Origin: an uncultured Acidobacteriota bacterium
Lineage (GTDB): Bacteria > Acidobacteriota > Terriglobia > UBA7540
DNA: 64,000 nt
Reading direction: 5' to 3'
NCBI GenBank assembly: GCA_963804995.1
Contig: CAWDSK010000003.1
Coordinates: 544,001-608,000 of the forward strand
The notes beneath the pieces were generated by a model that was given only the letters and a program-made list of their open reading frames with translations, did no database searches and had not been told where the DNA came from. A program made the position numbers and the translations under genes. Of this stretch, positions 12,755 through 63,908 are shown one piece after another. How positions within the stretch are numbered: position 1 is the first letter of the stretch; each line of letters starts with the position of its first letter.

Positions 12755-12841
12755 GCGGAAGTGGCGGAACTGGCAGACGCACCAGCTTGAGGGGCTGACG
12801 CTCGCAAGAGCGTGGGGGTTCGAATCCCCCCTTCCGCACCA
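12755..12841 (+). tRNA. tRNA-Leu(GAG)
   Basis: GCGGAAG/CTTCCGC acceptor stem plus ACCA; D-arm TGGCGGAACTGGCAGACGC; anticodon loop TTGAGGG; long variable arm; GGTTCGAATCC T-arm. Confidence 0.97.
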
Positions 12842-14335: not shown

Positions 14336-14797
14336 GCGTGAGCAAGCCGGGTGATCGCTGCTTCGCCTTAGCGCCCCGCTCCTCGGGGCTGGCAGGGGCG
14401 AGGGAGAGGAAAGTCCGAACTCCGCAGGGCAGTGTGCTCGCTAACGGCGAGGGCCGGAGGAGGATGTTCGAGAAATCGGACCGTACGCCTCTGGTACGGA
14501 AAGTGCCACAGAAAATATACCGCCGTGTTCTCGCCTTCGGGCTGCAGGATGCGGTAAGGGTGAAAAGGTGCGGTCCCGGTTGCCGGGAATTAAAGTAAGA
14601 GCGCACCGCCTCGGTGGTGACATCGAGGGCAGGGTAAACCCCACACGGAGCAAGACCAAATAGGAGGGGAGGGGCGGCCCGTTCCGTTACAACCCTCGGG
14701 TAGGTCGCTGGACCCCACGAGCAATCGAGGGGCTAGAGGAATGATCGCCACCCCGATTTGTCGGGGAACAGAATTCGGCTTACAGGCTTGCTCGCGC
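14336..14797 (+). ncRNA. rnpB: RNase P RNA, bacterial type A
   Basis: GAGGAAAGTCC, AGTGCCACAGAAA, GGGTGAAA..GGTGCGG..TAAGAGCGCACC, GGTAAACCCC..GGAGCAAG and AACAGAATTCGGCTTA; P1 GAGCAAGC/GCTTGCTC. Confidence 0.97.
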
Positions 14798-14996
14798 TCT
14801 CTCCTTGATTTCCTTGGCGACACCATCTAGAGCCGCCGCGTCCCCTACATGGGGTATACTCTCCACCGGCGAGAGCCGAAAAGTTAATTCCGGATAACAT
14901 TGGGAACTTCGAAGTCGCAGCGCCTTCGCTCCGCGGATCATGCATTTGCATTCTTCTTCCAGGGGTTCCCTTAAGCGATCGCAGGGGGTACGCACC

Positions 14997-52171: not shown

Positions 52172-53203
52172 TCAATCGGCCTGGCGCTCGTCCTTGGGGC
52201 GGAAGATCTGCGTCAGGATGACCCCGATCGAAACCAGGGCAATGCTGAGCAGCATAAGCAGATTCAGGAATTCGTGCAGGAAAAAGTGGGCGAATAAAGT
52301 GGCAACCAGAGGCGTGAGGGAAGAAAAAGCATAAACGCGCGCCACGGCCATGAGGCGCAGGGCCGTAAACATACAGTAGATCGCGAAGACACCGGAAAGG
52401 ACACCGCTGGTCAGCAGGGCAGCCAGGGTGCGCCAGGTTGTGGATTGCAGCGATGCGCCGTGCCCTGAAATCAGCAAGCCGGCGATACCCACCGCTACGC
52501 TCGTGACAAATTGCAGGAAGATCGCCACTGATTGGTGCGCGCCGCGAAGCTGCCCGTCACGCCACAGGACCCCGGAAATCCCGTAGGTCAACGCCGTGCT
52601 AAGAGCCAGCGGGATGGCCCAATACCACAGCGGGGAAATCGGCTGGCCCCGAACCTGTCCGAGCGCTAGCCCAACCAATCCCAGAAAAATCAAGCCCACA
52701 CCCACAAGAGCATAGCGATGAATCCGTTCATGCAGAAACACCCACGCGATCAAGGTTCCCCAGATGACGTAGGTCTCCTGAACCGGTATGGTGATGGTCA
52801 CTCCGCCGATCTGAATTGCAAAGTAGTAAAGGAAGAGTCCCAAAGTGGAGATGACGCCCGCGGCGACAAAAGCCAGGATGGCCCGCGGCCCAATGTACTG
52901 CGGCGAACTCGGTCGCAATTGATCGAGCGTGCGGTGCTTCCACACCAGGATACAACCCAGCAGCAAGCTGGGCAGTCCGCGCAGCACCGGACCAATGACC
53001 GGGTCGGCATGGACCACGGCGAGACGGTCGAAAATGTTAGCTGAGGCGTAACCCGTTACCGTCCCCAGCGCCCAGGGCTCACCGCGACGGCGTGGATTGG
53101 GGTTGGATGGGGTTTCCATATCGGTCGGGATCGTGGTCTCCGCACTGTTATCACAGGCCTCAGCGATTATATCGGGTTGAAGGGTTTGGGCAAGCTGATT
53201 CAC
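52172..53203 (-). CDS. DMT/EamA-family transporter; start uncertain
   Basis: About 10 TM in two repeats; AWVFLHERI and AHFFLHE motifs. Confidence 0.85.
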   Translation of the reverse strand: MNQLAQTLQPDIIAEACDNSAETTIPTDMETPSNPNPRRRGEPWALGTVTGYASANIFDRLAVVHADPVIGPVLRGLPSLLLGCILVWKHRTLDQLRPSSPQYIGPRAILAFVAAGVISTLGLFLYYFAIQIGGVTITIPVQETYVIWGTLIAWVFLHERIHRYALVGVGLIFLGLVGLALGQVRGQPISPLWYWAIPLALSTALTYGISGVLWRDGQLRGAHQSVAIFLQFVTSVAVGIAGLLISGHGASLQSTTWRTLAALLTSGVLSGVFAIYCMFTALRLMAVARVYAFSSLTPLVATLFAHFFLHEFLNLLMLLSIALVSIGVILTQIFRPKDERQAD

Positions 53204-53306: not shown

Positions 53307-53399
53307 GCAGTTTGACGTAGCGGCGGGTTTACCCCGCCATCGTACGTCGAGATAACTCGATCGATGGCGGGGTAAACCCGCCGCTACGTCAGCAAACTG
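53307..53399. repeat. GTAG-type REP doublet
   Basis: CAGTTTGACGTAGCGGCGGGTTTACCCCGCCATCG ... CGATGGCGGGGTAAACCCGCCGCTACGTCAGCAAACTG. Confidence 0.85.
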
Positions 53400-53424: not shown

Positions 53425-53454
53425 TTGAGGGGGCCACCTAAGAAGTGATACATT
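53425..53454 (+). promoter_or_regulatory. Possible extended -10 promoter for the riboswitch-TBDT transcript
   Basis: TTGAGG ... TGaTACATT about 15 nt before P1. Confidence 0.45.
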
Positions 53455-53469
53455 AGATACGGAATTTAG

Positions 53470-53669
53470 TGACCTTCGGGGCAGGGTGAGGACTCGCAGC
53501 ATTTTGATTCGGCTGCAACTCCAATTCCCGATCGGCGGTATAGCCCGCGAGGGGAGATCCGAATCGCCAGCGTGCACTAAGCTGTGTTACGAGGGCGAAA
53601 CGAATCTGCAATCCCCAGGATCCGGTGAAACTCCGGGGCCGACGGTACAGTCCGGATGGAAGAAGGTCA
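53470..53669 (+). ncRNA. FMN riboswitch (RFN element) with an L2 insertion and an extended P4
   Basis: P1 TGACCTTC/GAAGGTCA; GGGGCAGGGTGA..AATTCCCGATCGGCGGTATAGCCCGCGA; GATCCGGTGAAACTCCGGGGCCGACGGTACAGTCCGGATGGAAGAAG. Confidence 0.93.
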
Positions 53670-53788
53670 GGGCCGGTCCTTGTTTGGTGGACAATACTGC
53701 CTTCGCAGGTAGCGGAGGTGGCCGTCCATCTGTGTACCCTACCGCTCTGATCCCCTCCTCGCTCGTGCCCCGCCGTGAGGAAATTCCC

Positions 53789-56700
53789 TTGGGAAAGAAC
53801 CGGGAAAGAATTCTTTCACCGCTAATCATTCTCGTCTTCGAAGTTCTCTTTGCCTTGTGCGGTCTGACCCTGGCACCGTGGGCGGGCCGCGCGCAAAACT
53901 GGAACAGCCAACTGGAAGGGCTCATTACCGATCCCAGTGGCGCGGTCATTCCCGGAACCCAGGTTGAGTTGAAGAACTCTGCCACAGGGCAAATCCGCAA
54001 AACCAAAACCGATCAGCAAGGGTTCTATACTTTTCCTCTCGTACCGGTAGGGACCTACGACCTGCAAGTGGTGGCCCCCGGCTTTGCCACGCGCCTCCTG
54101 CATGGCTTGGTTCTGCAAGTCGGGCAGACGCCTCGCGTCGATTTGACACTGCAACTCGCGCGCGGTCAGGAGGTGTTGCAGGTCCAAGCCAGGACCCCGC
54201 TGGTCGAGACGGCTTCCCCTGCCATCGGCGACGAGCTCTCGAACCAACGCGTTACTTCCCTTCCCTTGAACGGGCGGCAATTCTCGCAGCTTGCGCTGCT
54301 CGCCGCCGGCGCCGTCCCACCCTATGCGAATGGCGCCACGCAGCAGTTCAATACGCCCGCCCAAGGTCTGGGATTTTCCGTTAATGGCCAGCGCTCCGAA
54401 CGCAACAACTTCTCTCTGGACGGCATCACGCTGATTGAACCTTTCGCCTTCAGCCTGACTGCGAATCCCTCAACGGATGCCATCCGGGAGTTCCGCGTGG
54501 TTGAGAATTCCTATTCCGCGGAACAGGGGATGCTTTCCGGCGCGCAAGTCGATATCGTGTCACGATCAGGTTCGAACCGGCTTCAGGGCACCGTCTACGA
54601 GTACTTGCGCAACAGCGCGTTCGACGCCAAGAACTTCTTTGATGACCCCACCCGTCCTATCCCACCCTATCGGCAAAACCAGTTCGGGGGAAGCTTGGGT
54701 GGACCCGCGCGCCGCGACCGGACATTCTTCTTCACCAATTACGAGGGATTTCGCATTCGCCAGAGCATCACGAACACCACCCTGCTCCCGACTGCAGCGG
54801 AGCGCCAAGGTGATTTCAGTGGGATCAATCCTGCCACCAGCCAGCCTTTTCCCGCGATCATTAATCCCGCGACCGGTGCGCCCTTCTCCGGAAATCATGT
54901 TCCTATCGCGGACATGAGTTCTGTGTCGCGGGCGCTGCTTGCCCTCGTGCCGCTGCCGAACCAATCCACTGGGGCGCTGGGTACGAATAACAGCATCGAT
55001 ACGGGGCTCCATGATCTGACCTCTGACCAGTTCACGGTGCGGGTCGATCACCAACTCAATTCCCGGCAGCAACTCTTCGGGCGCTTTCTGTTTTTTCAAG
55101 ACACTCAACTCTTTCCTTTCGTGCCAGACAGCTTTGCCAATAATCCGCCTGCCCCGCCCGGCTTTGGAGACAACGTCCACGACTCCGGCCGCAATCTGGC
55201 TCTGGGCCTCACCTCCGCCTTCCGGCCCACCATGATCAACGATTTTCGCTTCGGTTACTCTTACTACCACGGCGCCAAAGCAGGCCAGAACATCCGCAGC
55301 GGATTTCTTCAGTCACAGGGTTTGTCGCGCGCACCCGGCGCAACCAACGACGGCATTCCTGCCCTGGCCATTCCAGGTTACGCCGACCTGGGAGACAGCG
55401 ACATCTTCCAGCCGCAGTATCGCAAGAATCACACTTTTCAAGTGACTGACAGCCTGGTGTGGGTAAAAGGGCGGCACACTTTTCAGGTCGGAGGCGACTT
55501 CCGGCGGCTGCGGCTCTTCTACTTGGTCGAGGACTTCGGCCAAGGTGTGTTCCAATTCAGTGACGGGGCCAGTTCAGTTTCCGGCACGGCCTTCTCTGAC
55601 TTTCTGCTTGGCAGGCCGTTCCTTTCCTATGCCCAGGCTGGCAATTCCGGCGGCAACGACCGCCTCGACTATGTGGGAGCGTACTTCTCGGATGAATTTC
55701 ACGCTACCCCGCGCCTGAGCCTCACCTACGGCCTGCGCGAGGAATTCCACACGCCCCCGGTGAACATCGAGGGCCGGGCGTCGATCCTCGATCCCTCTAA
55801 TGCCCTGCGGTTCATCGTGCTCAATAACCGTGGCCAGGCTGACTCCCTGATTGCGAATCCGCTGGTCCAACAACTCAGTTCGCTTTACGGATTGCAATTC
55901 GAAACCTCGCAGCAGGCAGGATTACCAGATTCACTCATCAAGCCGGACTGGGCCAACTGGGCGCCCCGCTTCGGCTTCGCTTACGACCTGAATGGCAACA
56001 GCAAATCCTCGCTGCGCGGGGGCCTCGGTGTATTCAATTCCCTGATGGAACTTGATTACACTTCGGAGACGCGCCTGAGTGCGCCCATTACCGACTTCCT
56101 CTTCGGGCTCGACTTGTGCCGCTTCTACGGCCCCGGCGCGTGCGGTCAGTCTTTTGCTCCACCCGTGCTCACCTATCAACTCGGTTACACGCTCGGCAAT
56201 CAGGAGCCCACCGCTATTTCGTCTCCGCCCAACATCCGCAACGGTTATGTTTATGAGTGGAGCCTTTCCTATGAGCGTGAGCTCGCGCCCAACACCATCG
56301 TCTCGGTAAGTTACACGGGATCCGACGGCCACAAGTTGCCGCGGCGGGCTCTGCAAAATCAAGGCGTGCCCAATCTGCCGGGAGAGCGGCGTGGCTATCA
56401 TCCGCAACCTGGCTCCAACCAATTCATCCGCGCCACTGACGTAGACTCGAATTACAATGCGCTCGTGGCCCGCCTGGAGCGCCGCCTTTCCGGCGGACTC
56501 TCCTTCGCAGGCGGCTACACTTACGGCAAATCCCTTGACACCACCTCGGGGCTCGATGGCACCAATCAGCCGCAGGACAATTACAATATGCGCGCAGAAT
56601 ATGGCCCCTCCGATTTCGACATGCGCCAGCGCTTCACATTGTCGGGAATCTGGCAGTTGCCGTTCGGAACGAATGGGCGTTGGGCGAAGCAAGGAGCGGC

Positions 56701-57181
56701 CCGGAGCATCGCCGGCGATTGGCAACTCGCGAGCATCGTCACACTTCAAACCGGCCAGCCCGTCACCGCCATCCTCGCCACGGCGCTCAGCGGCACACAG
56801 TCGAACGGCACCGATCGCCCCAACTTGATTGCTGACCCCAATCTTCCCGGCAGCCAGCGCCGCCCGACCCGTTGGTTCAATACCAATGCCTTCGCCACCC
56901 CGCCAATCTTTAACGATGCGCTGGGCGCCTACAGCATTCCCGGGAATGAGGCGCGAAATGTGATTACCGGCCCGGATCTGAAAAGTTGGGACGCCAGCCT
57001 GGAACGTAACTTCCGCCTGACCGAGCGCTCAAAGATAATCTTCCGCACGGATTGCTTCAACCTCACCAACCATCCCAATTTCAATCGCCCCGGGTTGATC
57101 TTTGGTACGTCGAATTTTGGAAAGATTACGTCTGCACAAAACTCCCGGCAGATTCAGCTTTCCCTGCGCTTGAATTGGTAA
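53789..57181 (+). CDS. Oar-type TonB-dependent receptor under FMN riboswitch control
   Basis: GAGGA RBS plus TTG 53789; signal peptide; EGLITDPSGAVIPG, SLPLNGRQF, SRSGSNRLQG..YEYLRN, NWAPRFGFAY and terminal RQIQLSLRLNW. Confidence 0.92.
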   Translation: MGKNRERILSPLIILVFEVLFALCGLTLAPWAGRAQNWNSQLEGLITDPSGAVIPGTQVELKNSATGQIRKTKTDQQGFYTFPLVPVGTYDLQVVAPGFATRLLHGLVLQVGQTPRVDLTLQLARGQEVLQVQARTPLVETASPAIGDELSNQRVTSLPLNGRQFSQLALLAAGAVPPYANGATQQFNTPAQGLGFSVNGQRSERNNFSLDGITLIEPFAFSLTANPSTDAIREFRVVENSYSAEQGMLSGAQVDIVSRSGSNRLQGTVYEYLRNSAFDAKNFFDDPTRPIPPYRQNQFGGSLGGPARRDRTFFFTNYEGFRIRQSITNTTLLPTAAERQGDFSGINPATSQPFPAIINPATGAPFSGNHVPIADMSSVSRALLALVPLPNQSTGALGTNNSIDTGLHDLTSDQFTVRVDHQLNSRQQLFGRFLFFQDTQLFPFVPDSFANNPPAPPGFGDNVHDSGRNLALGLTSAFRPTMINDFRFGYSYYHGAKAGQNIRSGFLQSQGLSRAPGATNDGIPALAIPGYADLGDSDIFQPQYRKNHTFQVTDSLVWVKGRHTFQVGGDFRRLRLFYLVEDFGQGVFQFSDGASSVSGTAFSDFLLGRPFLSYAQAGNSGGNDRLDYVGAYFSDEFHATPRLSLTYGLREEFHTPPVNIEGRASILDPSNALRFIVLNNRGQADSLIANPLVQQLSSLYGLQFETSQQAGLPDSLIKPDWANWAPRFGFAYDLNGNSKSSLRGGLGVFNSLMELDYTSETRLSAPITDFLFGLDLCRFYGPGACGQSFAPPVLTYQLGYTLGNQEPTAISSPPNIRNGYVYEWSLSYERELAPNTIVSVSYTGSDGHKLPRRALQNQGVPNLPGERRGYHPQPGSNQFIRATDVDSNYNALVARLERRLSGGLSFAGGYTYGKSLDTTSGLDGTNQPQDNYNMRAEYGPSDFDMRQRFTLSGIWQLPFGTNGRWAKQGAARSIAGDWQLASIVTLQTGQPVTAILATALSGTQSNGTDRPNLIADPNLPGSQRRPTRWFNTNAFATPPIFNDALGAYSIPGNEARNVITGPDLKSWDASLERNFRLTERSKIIFRTDCFNLTNHPNFNRPGLIFGTSNFGKITSAQNSRQIQLSLRLNW

Positions 57182-57199: not shown

Positions 57200-58945
57200 C
57201 TAGTCCTCCAACGTCGAGAGGTCGCCGGTGGGCAGGCCTAATTCCCAGGCCTTCAGGACGCGGCGCATGATTTTCCCGCTGCGCGTTTTGGGTAGCTTTT
57301 CGCGGAATTCAATCTCGCGCGGAGCCGCGTGCGCCGCCAGTTTTTGCCGCACGAATTTCTGAATCTCATCTTTCAGCTCGTCGCTCGGTTTGTATCCTTC
57401 GCGCAGCGAGATGAACGCTTTGATGATGTGACCGCGCATGGCGTCGGGCTTGCCAATCACTCCGGCTTCGGCGACCGCCGGGTGCTCAACCAGGCAACTC
57501 TCGACCTCGAAGGGCCCCACGTTTTCGCCGGCCGTAATAATCAGGTCATCGACGCGCCCCTGGAACCAGAAATACCCGTCGGGGTCTTTGTAAGCGCTGT
57601 CGCCCGTCACGTACCAGCCCGGAATGCGGAAATAAGTCTCGTAGCGCTCCGGTTGTTTCCAGATGGTCCTCATCATACCGGGCCAGCCGGGCTTTATCAC
57701 CAAGTTGCCGAGCGTATTGGGAGGCACTTCCTTGCCCTCGTCATCGACGATTGTGGCGTGGACACCCGGCAGGGGCCGCCCCATCGAACCGGGCCGGATA
57801 GTCATAGAGGGATAATTCGAAACCAGGATATGTCCTGTTTCAGTCATCCACCAGTTGTCATGGATGCGCCGGCCGTAGGTTTTCCATCCCCACCACACCA
57901 CTTCCGGATTCAGCGGCTCCCCTACGCTCAGCACGTGGCGGAGGCTCGAGAGGTCATACTTTTCGACCACCTCTTCGCCCGCCCCCATCAGCATGCGGAA
58001 GGCGGTGGGCGCGCTGTACCAGATGTTCACGCGGAAGCGCTCGATGGTGTGGTACCAGTCGGCAGCGTTGAAGCGCCCGCCGCGGATGAGGTTGGTCATG
58101 CCGTTCAGCCAGGGTGAAAAGATTCCGTAGGAAGTTCCCGTCACCCAACCCGGGTCAGCCGTGCACCAATAGACATCGTCTTCGCGCATGTCGAGCACCC
58201 AGCGGCCCGTCATCAAGTGCCCGAGCATGGCGCGTTGGACGTGCAACACGCCCTTGGGTTTTCCCGTTGAGCCCGACGTGTAGTGGATGATCAGAGGATC
58301 GTCCAGCGTCAGCCACTCGATTTCCGTCTTCTCCTCGGCTTTGTCCATCAGGGCTTCGTAGCTATGCTGCGATTCCGACAACTCGCTGGCCGCCGCGCCC
58401 ACCAGGATAATGTGCTTCAGCGCGGGCAATTCGTATTGCGGCACGCGTTCGACGAGCGCCGGAGAGGTCACCAGCGCCACGGCTTCGGCGTTCGCCATGC
58501 GGTCCCTGACCGCGTCTTCCATGAAGGCCTCGAAGAGGGGGTTCGGAATCGCGCCGATCTTCAGGATGCCGAGGATGGCGATATAAAGTTCCGGGCGTCG
58601 TCCCAGGAATACAAACACCCGGTCGCCCTTTTTCACTCCCAGCTTGCGCAGAACGTTTGCGAAGCGGTTGGACTGTAGCGACAGGTCCTCAAAAGTAAAG
58701 CGCGAGGTGTGTTCCTTGTCGGTATAAATCAGCGCCAGCTTGTTGCGACGGCCGCGCGTCAACTGGCGGTCAATGGCCTCGTGCGCCATGTTGACCTTGC
58801 CGGTTTTTGCCCAATCAAATTCCTTCTCTGCGTCTTCCCAGCGGAACGTCGAGTAAAGCCCCTCATAATCCTTCAGATGGTGGGCCTGGGGATCGTCCAC
58901 CGGCTTCAAGACATTCAGCGGGTCCGCAGACGCTTTCGTGGCCAT
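57200..58945 (-). CDS. acsA: Acetate--CoA ligase
   Basis: YTSGSTGKPKG, WCTADPGWVTG, SVGEPLNP, DNWWMTETG and LPKTRSGKIMRR. Confidence 0.95.
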   Translation of the reverse strand: MATKASADPLNVLKPVDDPQAHHLKDYEGLYSTFRWEDAEKEFDWAKTGKVNMAHEAIDRQLTRGRRNKLALIYTDKEHTSRFTFEDLSLQSNRFANVLRKLGVKKGDRVFVFLGRRPELYIAILGILKIGAIPNPLFEAFMEDAVRDRMANAEAVALVTSPALVERVPQYELPALKHIILVGAAASELSESQHSYEALMDKAEEKTEIEWLTLDDPLIIHYTSGSTGKPKGVLHVQRAMLGHLMTGRWVLDMREDDVYWCTADPGWVTGTSYGIFSPWLNGMTNLIRGGRFNAADWYHTIERFRVNIWYSAPTAFRMLMGAGEEVVEKYDLSSLRHVLSVGEPLNPEVVWWGWKTYGRRIHDNWWMTETGHILVSNYPSMTIRPGSMGRPLPGVHATIVDDEGKEVPPNTLGNLVIKPGWPGMMRTIWKQPERYETYFRIPGWYVTGDSAYKDPDGYFWFQGRVDDLIITAGENVGPFEVESCLVEHPAVAEAGVIGKPDAMRGHIIKAFISLREGYKPSDELKDEIQKFVRQKLAAHAAPREIEFREKLPKTRSGKIMRRVLKAWELGLPTGDLSTLED

Positions 58946-58976
58946 TTTGGAAACCTCGTTAGTGGGAATTTGGTCT

Positions 58977-59132
58977 AAGGGCAGTGGCTAGTGGTTAGTG
59001 GCTAGTGGATAGTGACGAGCGCCTCCGAGATCCTAAGTGGGAAGAATCACTCCAATTTTGTTGGCTTCGGACCTCGGACGCCGGAAACGATTCTTGCTAG
59101 CCACTAGCCACTAACCACTAGCCACTGCCCTT
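58977..59132. repeat. Perfect 32-bp inverted repeat built from GTGGCTA heptamers
   Basis: 58977-59008 AAGGGCAGTGGCTAGTGGTTAGTGGCTAGTGG is the exact reverse complement of 59101-59132. Confidence 0.9.
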
Positions 59133-60442
59133 CCATATGCTTCATCCAGCAATTCGATCACATGCATCACCCGCTGCCCCTTGCCCTGGCGCTTCACGCC
59201 GGCGCTGAGTTGCAGCAGGCACCCGGGATTGGCAGTCAGCACCACTTCTGCACGTGTCTCTTCAATGCGGCGCAACTTGTTTTCCAGCAGCCGCTCCGAC
59301 ATCTCGTTGTGCACAACATTGTAAACGCCCGCGCTGCCGCAGCAGATGTCAGCTTCCTTCAGCTCCACCAGATCCAGCCCCGGGATGGCGGCCAGCAGCT
59401 TGCGTGGCGCCGTCCGGATACGCTGCGCGTGCCCCAGATGGCAGGGGTCCTGATAAGTTGCCCGCACTTTCATTATTCCCAGTTCCCGGTTCAAGTCAAT
59501 CCCCGCGAGGAATTCCGTGACGTCGCGCAATTTTTCGACGAAGGCCTTGGCGGGCTCATAAAGCTCCCGGTCTTCCTCCTCGAAGAGCAGCGGATACTCC
59601 TTGAGGACGGAGCCGCAGCCTGCGGCGTTGGTGATCACCGCGTCGAAGTCTCCGGCCAGGAACGCATGGATGTTGCGTTTCGCGAGGTCACGAGCCATGC
59701 CGCGCATGCCCGCGTGCACGTGCAAGGCGCCGCAGCACCCCTGGTCGCCTGGAATCACGACCTCGCAACCGTTTTTCGCGAGCACGCGCACCGTAGCGTC
59801 ATTGAGCCGCGCGAAGGAGAGGTTCGCAATGCATCCCGCAAAGAAGGCCACGCGGTAGCGCCGCGTCCCCTCCGCCTCAACGGTCGTCCCCAGGCGTCCA
59901 TAGAAGAAGGGTTTCTCCATGCGGGGCGCGAGTTCCGCCACGCGCGCCAGGCGACCGGGAAACAATTTCAAGACGCCTGAGCCCAGCACCAACTTTTCAA
60001 GCCCTGAGCGCTGATAAACGCGCAGCATGCCGCCCAACAATTTCAAACGTCCCGGATGCGGCAAGACTTCACAATAAAAGAGCTTGCGCAGCAAGGTGGT
60101 GAGCGGCGGACGGTGATAGTATTTTTCGATTTGCCCGCGCGCCGCTTCCACCAGCTTGCCGTACTCAACTCCGGAGGGGCACGCGGTTTCACACGCGCGA
60201 CAGTCAAGGCACAGATCGATGTGGCGGACAAAACTTTCACCGAGCGGCAGGCGGCCTTGCTCTACCTGAATGATCTGGTAGATGCGCCCGCGGGGCGAAT
60301 CCATCTCCACACCCAACTCGCGATAGGTGGGGCAGGCGTTCAGGCACAAGCCGCAGTGCACGCAGCGGGAATAGTCCGCCCAACGCGGCGCCTCACCCGG
60401 GCCGTAGCCGTTGCGCTTTTCGTCCTTGTTCAAATTCTCCAC
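59111..60442 (-). CDS. glcF: Glycolate/lactate oxidase iron-sulfur subunit
   Basis: CVHCGLCLNACPTY, CLDCRACETACPSG and two CCG domains; downstream of glcDE. Confidence 0.9.
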   Translation of the reverse strand: MENLNKDEKRNGYGPGEAPRWADYSRCVHCGLCLNACPTYRELGVEMDSPRGRIYQIIQVEQGRLPLGESFVRHIDLCLDCRACETACPSGVEYGKLVEAARGQIEKYYHRPPLTTLLRKLFYCEVLPHPGRLKLLGGMLRVYQRSGLEKLVLGSGVLKLFPGRLARVAELAPRMEKPFFYGRLGTTVEAEGTRRYRVAFFAGCIANLSFARLNDATVRVLAKNGCEVVIPGDQGCCGALHVHAGMRGMARDLAKRNIHAFLAGDFDAVITNAAGCGSVLKEYPLLFEEEDRELYEPAKAFVEKLRDVTEFLAGIDLNRELGIMKVRATYQDPCHLGHAQRIRTAPRKLLAAIPGLDLVELKEADICCGSAGVYNVVHNEMSERLLENKLRRIEETRAEVVLTANPGCLLQLSAGVKRQGKGQRVMHVIELLDEAYGRAVASG

Positions 60443-60490
60443 GCTCGCTTGGTTTCCAGTCTTAGTGGTCTCTGCGAATTGTGTGAAGTA

Positions 60491-60933
60491 ACCCCTCACC
60501 CGTCCCGCCCCGGCTGATGAAAACGCCGGCGGCGGTCCACCCTCTCCCCTCGGAGAGGGCTATGAATTCACGTTCTTCCCTTATCCAACTATATTGACTC
60601 TCCTTCGAAGTGCGCTAGTACTTGCTTGGATTAATTCGCGCATTTTTAAGTCGTTGAAATCAAAGTGCGACCAACAGCCAGTTACGTACGCTAATTAAGT
60701 CAAGCAAGTACTAGTGCACCGGACACACAGGGCGTTCATGTTAGTGCTGACCCCCTCACGCCCCCCCGGACCCTCAATCGCCGCGGCGACCGAAGGGGGA
60801 GTTAGGTTGATTTCGTTCCCTCGGCCTCAAGTTCGGGGGGCTTGATTTGAATCCACAACCCTCGCCCCTTTGGGGGAGAGGGTGGACCGCAACCGGCGTC
60901 CTCATCAGCCGGGGCGGGCCGGGTGAGGGGGTC
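60491..60933. repeat. Family A palindromic repeats in inverted orientation bracketing an AT-richer spacer
   Basis: 60491-60560 and 60858-60933 are inverted family A copies; the spacer has GTGCGCTAGTACTTGCTTG / CAAGCAAGTACTAGTGCAC inverted repeats. Confidence 0.75.
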
Positions 60934-60982
60934 CCAACGCCACTCCATGATGTAAGGCCAAATCCCAGCACCCATCCAAAAT

Positions 60983-62320
60983 CTAAAATCCCAAGAACCG
61001 TCCCGGCGACAGAATCCCTTTCGGATCCCAGGCGGATTTCATTTTGCGCATGGCTTCGATGTCATCGCCGGGCGCGCCCCAGACATCGACTTGGGCTTTA
61101 AGCTCCGCCGGGCAATGCTCGATGACCAGCGACCCGCCCAGATCGCCAGCGGCTTTGCGGAGGCGCGCCACCAAGTCGCCTGACTTCTCACTGAACTTCT
61201 CTTCCAGCAGGCAGACGTGGACAATGCCCACACCCGCAAAAACCGCGACCGATATGCGTTCCGCCGCAGCCGCCTGCTGCGCCTGTTCGAGGAATGTTTC
61301 GCCGGCGGCAATGGGCAGGGCGGCTTTCAGAACTGTCACATCGCGATATTTTTCCTTTAGCCACAGGGGAAGATTTGAGACCCGCTCCCACACCGTCTCC
61401 GCAGATTCCAGGCGCGCCATCATGGCGCCAGCGGCGCGGGCGAGTTGCCCCAAATCCCGTTCACAGCGTTCGATCACGCGGTGTGACCCACCCACTTCCA
61501 TCCAGAGTTCCAGACCGTTCTGCCCGGCATTCGATGCAGCACCATCGAGGAGACCGATGGCAGAATCATCCAGCAACGCCAGCCGCAGGGCATCAATCGG
61601 CGAACGCAGAATAATGCGACGTAGATCTCGCGCCGCGTCGAGGGTCGAGATCTCGAAAGCGAAGGTGGCGCGTTCCGGCGGCTTCGGATAAAGTTTCAGG
61701 TTGGCTTCCACAATGACGCCGAGCGTCCCGTATGAACCAATCAGAAGTTTGCTCAGGTCATAGCCGGCAACGTTTTTCACTACTCGCCCGCCGGTCTTCA
61801 AAATCTTTCCGTCGGTCGCGGCAATCTTCAATCCCAGGACCATATCCCGCGGGCCGCCATAGCCTTGCCGCAGGGGTCCCGCCGCGTTGGCCGCGATAAT
61901 CCCTCCGATGCTGGCCTTCGCGCCGCCCCTCGGATCGAGAGGCAGCCACAGCCCATGGCGCCCCACAAAGTTCTGGAGATCGCCGAACTTCATGCCGGGC
62001 TCGACGCTGATCGTCAGGTCAGCCGGCTCGTAGTGCCAAACCTGATTGAGTTCCTTTAATGATAGAGCGAGGTCGTATCGCCGCGGCGGGTTGCCGATCG
62101 AAAGCTTGGTGCCATTGCGAAAAGGAATAACGGCCAGTTCGTGCGCGGAGGCCAGGCTCAGCACTGCCGCCACCAGCTCTGCCGTGGGGGGGTAGACCAC
62201 GCAGCTTGGGACCTTGCCATCCACGGCCACGGCCGCACAGGCCTCGGGGTCTGTCACCACACGCGATTCGCCCAGCAGCGCTGTCAATTCCGCCCGCACG
62301 GATAGGAGCGCGACCGTCAC
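60983..62320 (-). CDS. glcE: Glycolate oxidase FAD-binding subunit
   Basis: YEPADLTISVEPG, ASIGGIIAAN, GGRVVKNVAGYDL.KL..GSYGTLG and WDPKGILSPGR; GTG overlaps the glcD stop. Confidence 0.9.
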   Translation of the reverse strand: MTVALLSVRAELTALLGESRVVTDPEACAAVAVDGKVPSCVVYPPTAELVAAVLSLASAHELAVIPFRNGTKLSIGNPPRRYDLALSLKELNQVWHYEPADLTISVEPGMKFGDLQNFVGRHGLWLPLDPRGGAKASIGGIIAANAAGPLRQGYGGPRDMVLGLKIAATDGKILKTGGRVVKNVAGYDLSKLLIGSYGTLGVIVEANLKLYPKPPERATFAFEISTLDAARDLRRIILRSPIDALRLALLDDSAIGLLDGAASNAGQNGLELWMEVGGSHRVIERCERDLGQLARAAGAMMARLESAETVWERVSNLPLWLKEKYRDVTVLKAALPIAAGETFLEQAQQAAAAERISVAVFAGVGIVHVCLLEEKFSEKSGDLVARLRKAAGDLGGSLVIEHCPAELKAQVDVWGAPGDDIEAMRKMKSAWDPKGILSPGRFLGF

Positions 62321-63744
62321 AAGACACCTCCCGCGGCCCGCTCCACACGCAATTCCCCGCACATTTTCCCAGTGGGCAAAAGCTTTCCGGGATTAAAGCG
62401 CCCCTGAGGATTGAAAAGGTTCTTGATCCGGCGCATCAAATCCAGATCGTCGTCGGAGAAAATCAACGGCATCAGGTCCGATTTTTCGAGGCCCACGCCG
62501 TGCTCACCGGTGATGGAGCCGCCCATCTCCACGCACTTGCCGATAATTTCTTTGGCGGCCTTGAGGACGCTCGCCGTCTGCTCCTTGTCGCGCGAATCGT
62601 ACATGATGAGAGGATGCAGGTTTCCATCGCCCGCGTGGAAGATGTTGCCAATGTGTAAATCGTATTTCTTCTCGATGTTGCCGATGAATTCCAGCATCTC
62701 CGGCAACTTGGTGCGGGGGATGACGCCGTCCTGAACGTAGTAGCTGGGACTGATGCGGCCCAGCGCCCCGAAGGCATTCTTCCTTCCCTTCCACAACAGG
62801 TCGCGCTCCTCCGCCGTCCGGGCGCGCCGCACATCACGCGCCTGATTCTCGCGGCAGACACTCTCAATTTCATCCGCGTGCTCTTCCACGGCTTCTTTCA
62901 AGCCCTCGACTTCCGCCAGCAACACAGCGGCGCAATCCATGGGATAGCCGGCATGGGTGGCTGCTTCCACGGCGCGCAAGGTGAATCCATCCATCATCTC
63001 GAGAGCGGCGGGCGTAATGCCCCGCGCCGTAATGGCAGCCACAGTGCGCGTGGCGTCCGCGATGCGGTCGTAAATGGCGAGGAGCGTTTTGACGGCTTCA
63101 GGCCTGCGCGAGAGCCGCACCGTTGCCGCCGTGACGATGCCGAGCGTCCCTTCCGAACCGACAATCACTCCCGTCAGGTCGTAGCCCGGCCGGTCCCAGT
63201 GCGCCGCGCCCGTATGCATCACTTCGCCATCGGGCAACACCACCTCCAAGCCCAGCACGTGGTTGGTGGTGACGCCATAGGCCAGAGTGTGCGGGCCGCC
63301 GGAATTCTCCGCCACGTTGCCGCCAATCGTGCAGGCCTTTTGGCTGGAGGGATCGGGGGCATAGTAGTAGCCCTCGTCGGCGACGGCGAGGGTGAGGTCG
63401 AGATTCACCACGCCGGGCTGGACGCGGGCGCGCTGGTTCTCTAAATCAATTTCGAGAATCTGCTTCATCCGCGAAAAGCCCACCAGGATGCCGCCCTCGG
63501 TAGCGACCGAGCCTCCGCTCAGGCCCGTGCCCGCCCCCCGCGCCACCACGGGCAGATCATGCCGTACGGCAAGTTTTACAATCGCGACCACATGCTCTGT
63601 CGTGCGGGGGAAGACCACGACGTCAGGCTGGCGCAAAGAGGAAAGGGCGTCGTACTCATAGAGCATCAGGTCTTCCTGATGCCATAAGACGCCGTCCTCG
63701 CCCACGATTTTGGCGAGTTCCCGAGCAAAACTCTTGGAATTCAT
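62317..63744 (-). CDS. glcD: Glycolate oxidase FAD-linked subunit
   Basis: RGAGTGLSGG, PDPSSQKACTIGGNVAENSGG, GSEGTLGI, FHAGDGNLHP and GEHGVGLEK. Confidence 0.93.
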   Translation of the reverse strand: MNSKSFARELAKIVGEDGVLWHQEDLMLYEYDALSSLRQPDVVVFPRTTEHVVAIVKLAVRHDLPVVARGAGTGLSGGSVATEGGILVGFSRMKQILEIDLENQRARVQPGVVNLDLTLAVADEGYYYAPDPSSQKACTIGGNVAENSGGPHTLAYGVTTNHVLGLEVVLPDGEVMHTGAAHWDRPGYDLTGVIVGSEGTLGIVTAATVRLSRRPEAVKTLLAIYDRIADATRTVAAITARGITPAALEMMDGFTLRAVEAATHAGYPMDCAAVLLAEVEGLKEAVEEHADEIESVCRENQARDVRRARTAEERDLLWKGRKNAFGALGRISPSYYVQDGVIPRTKLPEMLEFIGNIEKKYDLHIGNIFHAGDGNLHPLIMYDSRDKEQTASVLKAAKEIIGKCVEMGGSITGEHGVGLEKSDLMPLIFSDDDLDLMRRIKNLFNPQGRFNPGKLLPTGKMCGELRVERAAGGVL

Positions 63745-63908
63745 ACCGGCCCCTGAGTGCAATGTGCCCGCCGGATTGCGGGGATAGCGGGCCAATTGCG
63801 TGGGAATTTGATGCGGCCAAGCCAGCCCCTTACTCTCGGCGCGAGTATATCGCCGCGGCCGAGGGGCGTCAACGGAGGGGGGGTATGAAGATTCGAGCTG
63901 CGGCGGCG

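Follow-up and report, generated by a model that had tools for sequence, protein, structure and literature searches.

Why does the gene of an outer-membrane transporter lie behind a riboswitch for flavin mononucleotide (FMN)? The question is raised by a stretch of 64,000 nucleotides from an uncultured acidobacterium of the class Terriglobia (GTDB lineage UBA7540; GenBank assembly GCA_963804995.1, contig CAWDSK010000003.1, positions 544,001 to 608,000; hereafter the window), in which an FMN riboswitch precedes a gene encoding an Oar-type TonB-dependent transporter (TBDT). From sequence comparison we consider it probable that this TBDT acts in the outer membrane as a high-affinity receptor for riboflavin (or for FMN or flavin adenine dinucleotide, FAD) in a bacterium that does not produce the vitamin, and that it is switched off by the FMN riboswitch. 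The riboswitch-controlled TBDT of soil and peat Acidobacteria would thereby be the strongest candidate to date for a vitamin B2 receptor of the outer membrane.

A complete FMN aptamer precedes the TBDT gene and its orthologs

A covariance-model search with the Rfam family RF00050 (FMN) yielded a match of 92.4 bits (E 6.4e-20; gathering score 66.2 bits), which spans model positions 1-138 of 138 and is not truncated (Table 1). An initial annotation, made from the letters of the window, had described a complete RFN element 120 nt upstream of the TBDT start. The element is indeed complete, and its 3' end lies 117 nt before the TTG start codon at 53789. It is the single FMN element that a scan with RF00050 detected in the 7.55 Mb of the assembly (9 contigs, 92% complete). 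The gene behind it was correctly called monocistronic, being flanked in its own genome by a divergent EamA permease gene upstream and a convergent acetate-CoA ligase gene downstream. Long insertions are present within two peripheral hairpins of the window aptamer. Across 26 distinct sequences from relatives, compensatory changes were observed in 5 of 34 consensus pairs and the aptamer core was invariant; the close relationship of these sequences leaves most core pairs without any variation. The peripheral hairpin insertion located at 53527-53610 in the window varies in length, giving aptamers of 139 to 252 nt (loci L002-L022), and in many relatives it consists of imperfect heptad-like GTGAC/AGTGG repeats, whose pairing produces a long stem.

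Within the genus, 22 of 25 genomes carry a single copy of the riboswitch, versus 0/16 genomes from other families of the class. In all 21 genus loci that were fetched, a TBDT gene lies directly downstream of the aptamer, and 20 of the encoded proteins are 64-77% identical to the window protein. Rescanning detected full-length aptamers in 20/20 genus loci (85.8-92.4 bits); low first scores of some loci had been due to cut candidate windows, and one locus holding N (L020) was left out of the rescan. The TBDT behind the remaining leader (L007, genome G014) is 36% identical to the window protein, and its leader and TTG are as in the relatives; this mismatch may reflect paralog recombination or an assembly chimera. 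Public ortholog loci came from metagenome-assembled genomes (MAGs) of uncultured Terriglobia and other Acidobacteriota from peat, soil and sediment. Among these, identity to the window TBDT drops sharply from 64-83% to at most 39%. The aptamer was present in 15/15 public loci of at least 64% identity with upstream sequence (82.9-90.3 bits) and in 0/3 scanned paralog loci (35-39% identity).

For a view of the whole family, 121 genomes from 30 genera were sampled, and the same draw was used for RibH, riboswitch, TBDT and EamA. FMN riboswitches occur in 88 of these genomes (24/30 genera), with full-length aptamers across many genera (82.9-96.8 bits). A TBDT ortholog (52-100% identity) is encoded by 66, a count that excludes genomes with only a paralog of 36-38% identity (G195, G206, G211, G222, G226, G229, G262, G270 and G273). 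The riboswitch was detected in 60 of the 66 ortholog-bearing genomes, and three of the six misses are contig ends (G016, G199 and G233), with a 3' aptamer remnant at the contig start in G199. Orthologous TBDTs therefore carry RFN elements within the genus, in public MAGs and in the family, a point that the initial annotation had wished to see checked. It had also considered that the orthologs might sit in glycan loci. They do not: their neighbours are an amino-acid permease, a DMT permease, acs (acetate-CoA ligase) and glcDEF.

Riboflavin synthesis genes are absent where the TBDT is present

In profile searches the genome of origin gave no match for Lum_binding (RibE), DMRL_synthase (RibH), DHBP_synthase (RibB) or GTP_cyclohydro2 (RibA), while the same searches were positive in 10-14 of 14 control genomes. 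Likewise, four RibBA and two RibH open reading frames (ORFs) of outgroup Terriglobia had no tblastn match in it at E <= 1e-8, and some flanking outgroup ORFs, serving as a control, did match. The flavokinase RibF is present. The transporters PnuX/RibM (PF04973) and ECF-RibU (PF12822) found no match in this genome, which is 92% complete. RibH and RibB were detected in 0/25 genomes of the genus (completeness 58-98%) versus 16/16 genomes from other families of the class, and RibH in 146 of 150 other Acidobacteriota genomes sampled evenly over the phylum, three unpublished ones included (G062, G086 and G184, all RibH-positive). The suspicion, raised with the initial annotation, that rib genes might be lacking thus proved correct for this genome and its whole genus, and the gene content predicts that the organism is a riboflavin auxotroph. 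In the phylum sample a single genome of the 150 has an FMN riboswitch, and it precedes a ribB-like gene.

Within the family, RibH is found in 48/121 genomes, among them eight unpublished and RibH-positive ones (G206, G232, G258, G266, G270, G276, G279 and G291). RibH and the TBDT ortholog occur together in none of the 121: the ortholog is present in 66/73 RibH-negative genomes and 0/48 RibH-positive genomes. Seven genomes have neither, namely G010, G198 (66% complete), G204 (83%), G227, G245, G251 (75%) and one genome of genus g132; in G010 an ortholog fragment lies at a contig end. The exclusion extends into genus g130, where four genomes have the TBDT without RibH and the fifth, G238, has RibH without TBDT and EamA. 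Predicted riboflavin auxotrophy is widespread in the family: the 73 genomes without RibH belong to 19 or 20 of the 30 genera. Three rib-containing genera are without any FMN riboswitch (g141, 0/15; g136, 0/3; g125, 0/2).

A probable exchange of a rib operon for the TBDT gene

Among 29 family loci with a riboswitch, the aptamer is followed by rib genes in 18 and by the TBDT ortholog in 10; one locus ends too soon. In the 18 rib loci ribH lies ∼0.8 kb after the aptamer, and ribBA was found in all 12 whose sequence is long enough. Pfam matches define the operon behind the aptamer of G208 as ribE-ribH-ribBA-ribD. Upstream of it lie a divergent EamA ortholog (64% identity) and a histidine-kinase ortholog, as in the window. 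In G238 the riboswitch and rib operon have a permease ortholog (69%) as their immediate upstream neighbour, matching the upstream flank of the window. The downstream flank (acs, glcFED) is not common to G208 or G238 and the window within the stretches fetched.

The rib and TBDT leaders align along promoter, aptamer and platform, including a GCCCCG motif. In G248 and G238, whose leaders precede rib genes, the motif serves as 5' arm of a hairpin that resembles a terminator and has a U-rich stretch behind it; at the aligned positions of the TBDT leaders GCCCCG is followed by a GAGG Shine-Dalgarno (SD) sequence and the TTG start. We read this as suggesting one riboswitch lineage in which the cargo was swapped in place and a translational platform arose from the terminator. 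We take the change to have gone from rib operon to TBDT because rib genes are the rule in the phylum. The scenario towards which we lean, somewhat better than evenly, is that an ancestral FMN riboswitch controlling ribE-ribH-ribBA-ribD by termination kept its place, that its cargo was exchanged for an Oar-type TBDT and that the 3' arm and U-tail of the terminator gave way to SD and TTG. Together with the DMT permease the TBDT would then form a two-membrane riboflavin salvage system, comprising the first outer-membrane B2 receptor, and most of the family (73/121 genomes without RibH) would have no other source of flavin.

The leader suggests control of translation

One expression platform is common to 22 of the 26 distinct leaders. 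In these 22 standard leaders GAGG stands 7-8 nt before a conserved TTG, and in the window the in-frame TTG (53789-53791) starts 7 nt after GAGGA. The initial annotation had proposed a hairpin, TCCTCGC (53756-53762) with GTGAGGA (53775-53781), that sequesters the ribosome-binding site (RBS). Both arms, anti-SD and SD, were found at these coordinates; for switching, the simple two-armed model would have to be completed by the 5' strand of the aptamer as a third partner. Taken alone, the platform hairpin has a local fold z of -1.33, and 17 of 200 shuffled sequences fold equally well. Its weight comes from its conservation in 22/26 distinct leaders and not from fold statistics.

The 5' strand of the aptamer (53473-53492) is complementary to the platform segment that holds the anti-SD and a (CCC)TGCCCCG tract. 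The energy of this duplex is -29 to -37 kcal/mol in 22/22 standard leaders (z = -1.4 to -4.4 versus shuffled segments). In folding calculations the unconstrained ensemble is dominated by this pairing, equals the ensemble in which it is enforced and is 8-27 kcal/mol more stable than aptamer and platform folded apart. Exact complementarity over at least 9 nt (9-10), CC(C)TGCCCC(G), occurs at a fixed distance in 16/26 leaders, a length reached by 0-6 of 200 shuffles. In 21 of the 22 leaders more energy is required to open the SD (6 nt) when the aptamer is folded than in the alternative pairing, with means of 6.1 and 3.9 kcal/mol, respectively, and 8.8 versus 3.1 kcal/mol in the window. A scan for terminator-like sites found no intrinsic terminator in the window leader. 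Taken together, the leader fits an FMN-dependent translational OFF switch, probably under kinetic control, with a modest margin in the modelled energies. When FMN is abundant, the aptamer would be locked and the CCUCC anti-SD segment free to pair with the GAGG of the SD, and translation would be lowered. When FMN is scarce, the anti-SD and the (CCC)UGCCCCG tract would instead pair with the 5' strand of the aptamer, making the RBS easier to open.

A riboswitch that clearly descends from a rib-operon leader might also be a mere leftover of the lost operon and regulate nothing now. The window's own exact complement to the aptamer, which measures 7 nt only and is matched in length by 55/200 shuffles, would agree with this. 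However, full-length aptamers scoring 82.9-96.8 bits are kept across many genera, compensatory changes occur in them, and conservation extends to the remodelled platform, in which SD and start codon occupy the position of the former terminator. Furthermore, the aptamer is truncated and mutated in G006, where the TBDT gene was lost. A non-functional relic is therefore very improbable.

The transcript presumably starts from a putative promoter upstream of the aptamer (Table 1), proposed from the sequence and from a similar block in relatives: leader alignments place a TGnTAnAnT-like block at equal distance before the aptamer. The consensus scan did not call this promoter, which has 8/12 hexamer matches at a threshold of 9. 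In the eamA-riboswitch intergenic region there is also a perfect 30-nt inverted repeat (53313-53391; 19 nt between the arms). It was considered as a regulatory site and rejected, as it belongs to a dispersed repeat resembling repetitive extragenic palindromes or miniature inverted-repeat transposable elements, with 82 matches on both strands genome-wide.

The transporter has the fold of a TBDT

The N-terminus of the TBDT is signal-peptide-like. It is followed by a CarboxypepD_reg domain (residues 42-122), a plug region (∼140-256), where the Pfam Plug match is weak (15.2 bits, E 0.031, below the cut-off of 23.9), and an OMP_b-brl_4 barrel (PF25183; residues 257-1123, 738 bits, profile positions 1-838 of 838). 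CarboxypepD_reg followed by the PF25183 barrel is the domain architecture of Oar-like proteins. Residues 128-134, EVLQVQA, which include a beta-strand in the structural model (129-133), resemble a TonB box, and the genome holds 18 TonB_C (PF03544) matches. An AlphaFold2 model built on 36 sequences (pLDDT 79.1, pTM 0.80) was compared with solved structures by Foldseek. It matches TBDT chains with E values of 5e-31 to 1e-22, among them FusA, YddB, PirA, PfeA, PqqU and BtuB, and aligns over ∼1000-1100 columns to whole plug-and-barrel chains (probability 1.00). By sequence, phmmer found no related PDB chain at E <= 0.01, and characterised vitamin TBDTs resemble the window TBDT at the level of fold only (8-11% identity). 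The protein is one of many of its kind, as 51 Oar-like loci were counted in its own genome; the best paralog is 33-37% identical.

A small ORF follows the TBDT gene on the same strand in 6/9 relatives examined (L023, L024, L026, L028, L029 and L031; e.g. L031:9963-10352 and L028:9812-10225), with two copies in L029. The encoded protein of ∼130 aa is exported, with a signal peptide carrying a lipobox-like ...ATAC... motif, and a Pfam search assigned it to no family. No such ORF occurs in the window; the only homologue in the own genome lies just beyond it and is weak (35% over 76 aa). This protein may be an accessory binding protein. Several frames or stops were seen in the TBDT orthologs of L030 (G013), L031 (G003), L047 and L048, and eamA of G013 is split as well. 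These are probably assembly indel errors, with pseudogenes as the other possibility.

A DMT permease accompanies the TBDT

The gene divergent from the TBDT encodes an EamA/DMT permease. Its ortholog (58-86% identity) was found in 70/121 family genomes, comprising 69/73 RibH-negative genomes versus 1/48 RibH-positive genomes (G208). It is absent from 16 outgroup genomes, where matches reach at most 29% identity. In many genomes EamA is located on another contig than the TBDT (e.g. G230, G214 and G242), and in G005 the two genes are 340 kb apart, so that their co-occurrence is not merely a matter of physical linkage. Close orthologs are named only "DMT family transporter", a protein atlas places them in generic EamA clusters, and NCBIfam gave weak ArnE and phn_DUF6 matches only. 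The riboflavin transporters RibN and ImpX belong to the same DMT/EamA superfamily. With slight preference over other roles, we propose the permease as an inner-membrane flavin permease and candidate partner of the TBDT. In the proposed route flavin would cross the outer membrane via the TonB-energised TBDT, would be carried over the inner membrane by the permease encoded next door, and RibF would turn the imported riboflavin into FMN and FAD.

The case for flavin uptake and its rivals

Support for flavin scavenging by the TBDT, as proposed in the initial annotation, comes from the loss of rib genes, from the exclusion between RibH and TBDT and from the cargo swap; the function itself is what we infer from them. 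A role in extracellular electron transfer, suggested in the same place, found no evidence in support from any analysis.

Several observations weigh against a riboflavin receptor. With its 376 Da, riboflavin is small enough that porins might in principle let it through. The SD is predicted to be mostly paired in both modelled states (mean unpaired probability 0.14 versus 0.18), so that the predicted switch margin is modest. Three TBDT orthologs are truly without an aptamer: that of G220, that of G190, where none lies within 2.6 kb upstream, and the 52% identical ortholog of G225, where none lies within 4.2 kb. Outside the family, the RibH-negative genomes G053, G084, G153 and G165 have neither an FMN riboswitch nor an EamA ortholog (no search for the TBDT ortholog was made there), and since they are without EamA ortholog they give no independent support. 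The perfect exclusion, being observed among related genomes, could reflect only one or a few events. Finally, two rib-less genomes of the genus, G006 and G012, have lost the TBDT, which is therefore not indispensable. In G006 a mutated 5' aptamer stump of 79 nt adjoins eamA and is followed by unrelated DNA and then acs; in G012 acs and eamA are separated by 790 nt with nothing between.

In G220 (L175, G220:C375, 1400-2010) a VapBC-like pair, judged by eye to be a ribbon-helix-helix protein and a PIN protein, occupies the expected aptamer position between eamA and the TBDT gene, and a platform remnant, CTGCCCCG...GGGGCAG, is left.

Both G006 and G012 keep the EamA ortholog. EamA alone might thus supply riboflavin, and the TBDT would then carry an unrelated substrate whose need depends on flavin status, or would export like the Oar of Myxococcus. 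The family search also detected EamA without a TBDT ortholog in G198, G204 and G227, and with only the contig-end fragment in G010, and members of the Oar family have no assigned import substrate. Yet this explanation leaves open why a TBDT replaced the rib operon behind the same riboswitch and why its ortholog is confined to RibH-negative genomes (66/73 against 0/48). Moreover, repressing an exporter at high FMN makes little sense in an auxotroph. We consider such a division of labour quite unlikely.

Another point against a receptor for the free vitamin is that the best Foldseek matches of the model are FusA, the ferredoxin receptor, and YddB, both large TBDTs that import proteins. The substrate of the TBDT might accordingly be a macromolecule that contains flavin, or another flavin source, for instance a small flavoprotein, from which flavin is released in the periplasm and then imported. 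Its unusual size (1130 aa) with long loops and the small exported protein encoded after the gene in 6/9 relatives would suit such a substrate. However, all TBDT structures match about equally (query TM-score 0.38-0.47), so that their ranking says little on the substrate; the 51 Oar-like paralogs of the own genome are typically of this size; and the window has no accessory ORF. Uptake of a flavoprotein is therefore unlikely, and a receptor for riboflavin, FMN or FAD remains our preferred reading.

Surroundings of the locus

The coordinates of the locus are given in Table 1. The true start of EamA probably lies near 53116, which gives the 314-aa form seen in homologues. On the other side of the TBDT, the region 57200-63795 (minus strand) encodes the acetate-CoA ligase and then glcF-, glcE- and glcD-like subunits of an FAD and iron-sulfur oxidase. 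The whole cluster is syntenic across the genus, and it encodes flavoproteins in a genome that is predicted to be unable to make flavin. In G020 a group II intron domain (RF00029, 54.8 bits; L044 6669-6752) was found in a 3.1-kb gap between the TBDT gene and acs. Elsewhere the window contains a bacterial class A RNase P RNA (14339-14798, 267 bits) and a tRNA with a long variable arm (12755-12838).

Table 1. Features of the riboswitch locus and its flanks (window coordinates)
Feature	Position	Strand	Remarks
EamA/DMT permease	52172..53203	-	divergent from TBDT; two EamA repeats, 96.8 bits
Putative promoter	53425..53454	+	-35 TTGAGG 53425-53430, 18-nt spacer, extended -10 TGaTACATT 53446-53454
FMN aptamer (RF00050)	53468..53671	+	P1 strands GACCTTC 53471-53477 / GAAGGTC 53662-53668
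5' aptamer segment CCTTCGGGGCAGGGTGAGGA	53473..53492	+	complementary to expression platform
Expression platform	53672..53788	+	aligns with rib-operon leaders of sister genera
Switching segment	53756..53772	+	anti-SD TCCTCGC 53756-53762 plus TGCCCCG 53766-53772
SD region GTGAGGA	53775..53781	+	
Oar-type TBDT	53789..57181	+	1130 aa, TTG start
Acetate-CoA ligase	57200..58945	-	convergent; 943 bits to NF003313

Comparison with known systems

The closest parallels are TonB-dependent vitamin receptors under riboswitches. In E. coli and many other bacteria the gene of BtuB, a TonB-dependent vitamin receptor, has a cobalamin riboswitch in its leader and is turned off by the ligand, partly at the RBS (PMC5756330, PMC5317091). 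In the window locus, too, a riboswitch that senses a coenzyme lies in the leader of a TBDT gene, with a proposed ligand OFF response partly at the RBS. In contrast to BtuB, the ligand is FMN rather than adenosylcobalamin, and the protein is an Oar-type TBDT with CarboxypepD_reg domain that is about twice as long; the two are unrelated in sequence and alike in fold only. Comparative genomics has also described TonB-dependent thiamine receptors of the BT2390 type, with a thiamine pyrophosphate riboswitch and a permease nearby (PMC5317091, PMC10409787). These share with the window a small vitamin below 400 Da (presumed here), a TBDT under its own riboswitch and an inner-membrane permease nearby, and differ in the vitamin, the riboswitch and the TBDT subfamily. 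A survey guided by FMN riboswitches covers the riboflavin transporters ECF-RibU, RibM/PnuX, RibN, RfuABCD, ImpX, RibXY, RfnT, RibZ and RibV, all of the cytoplasmic membrane; by term count, the words "outer membrane", "TonB" and "Acidobacteria" are absent from the survey text that was counted (PMC4418817). As in those systems, a transporter gene lies behind an FMN riboswitch, which is the logic by which they were discovered. Unlike there, the gene under control codes for the part in the outer membrane, and the riboswitch does not precede the DMT gene.

At the level of protein, PqqU (PDB 9c4o; structural match E 2.9e-26) is also a TBDT that scavenges a small redox cofactor, pyrroloquinoline quinone. 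It differs in having no riboswitch and in being a classical TBDT of ∼660 aa, 9% identical to the window TBDT. The combination of CarboxypepD_reg and PF25183 is shared with Oar of Myxococcus xanthus and with Oar-like TBDTs of Acidobacteria; unlike those, only the orthologous group described here carries a riboswitch. The Oar protein of Myxococcus is reported to act as a secretion channel. A full-text literature search, with subscription journals and supplements outside its scope, found no published case of an FMN riboswitch upstream of a TBDT; nor did it find a characterised TonB-dependent riboflavin receptor, in agreement with the initial annotation. The arrangement is thus an FMN version of the known pairing of vitamin riboswitch and TBDT, in a combination not found in print.

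Implications

If flavin is indeed the substrate, it would be the first assigned to any Oar-type TBDT. The family is very large (this one genome has 51 loci), and most of its members are still without an assigned substrate. An outer-membrane step would be added to bacterial riboflavin uptake, which has so far been described for the cytoplasmic membrane only. The locus would also provide a clean natural example of a riboswitch that retained its ligand through a change of cargo, from synthesis to uptake, and of read-out, from termination to translation. For the organisms themselves, the prediction is that widespread uncultured Acidobacteria of peat, soil and sediment depend on riboflavin made by others. 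This points to riboflavin as a supplement for their cultivation and bears on models of vitamin cross-feeding in soil.

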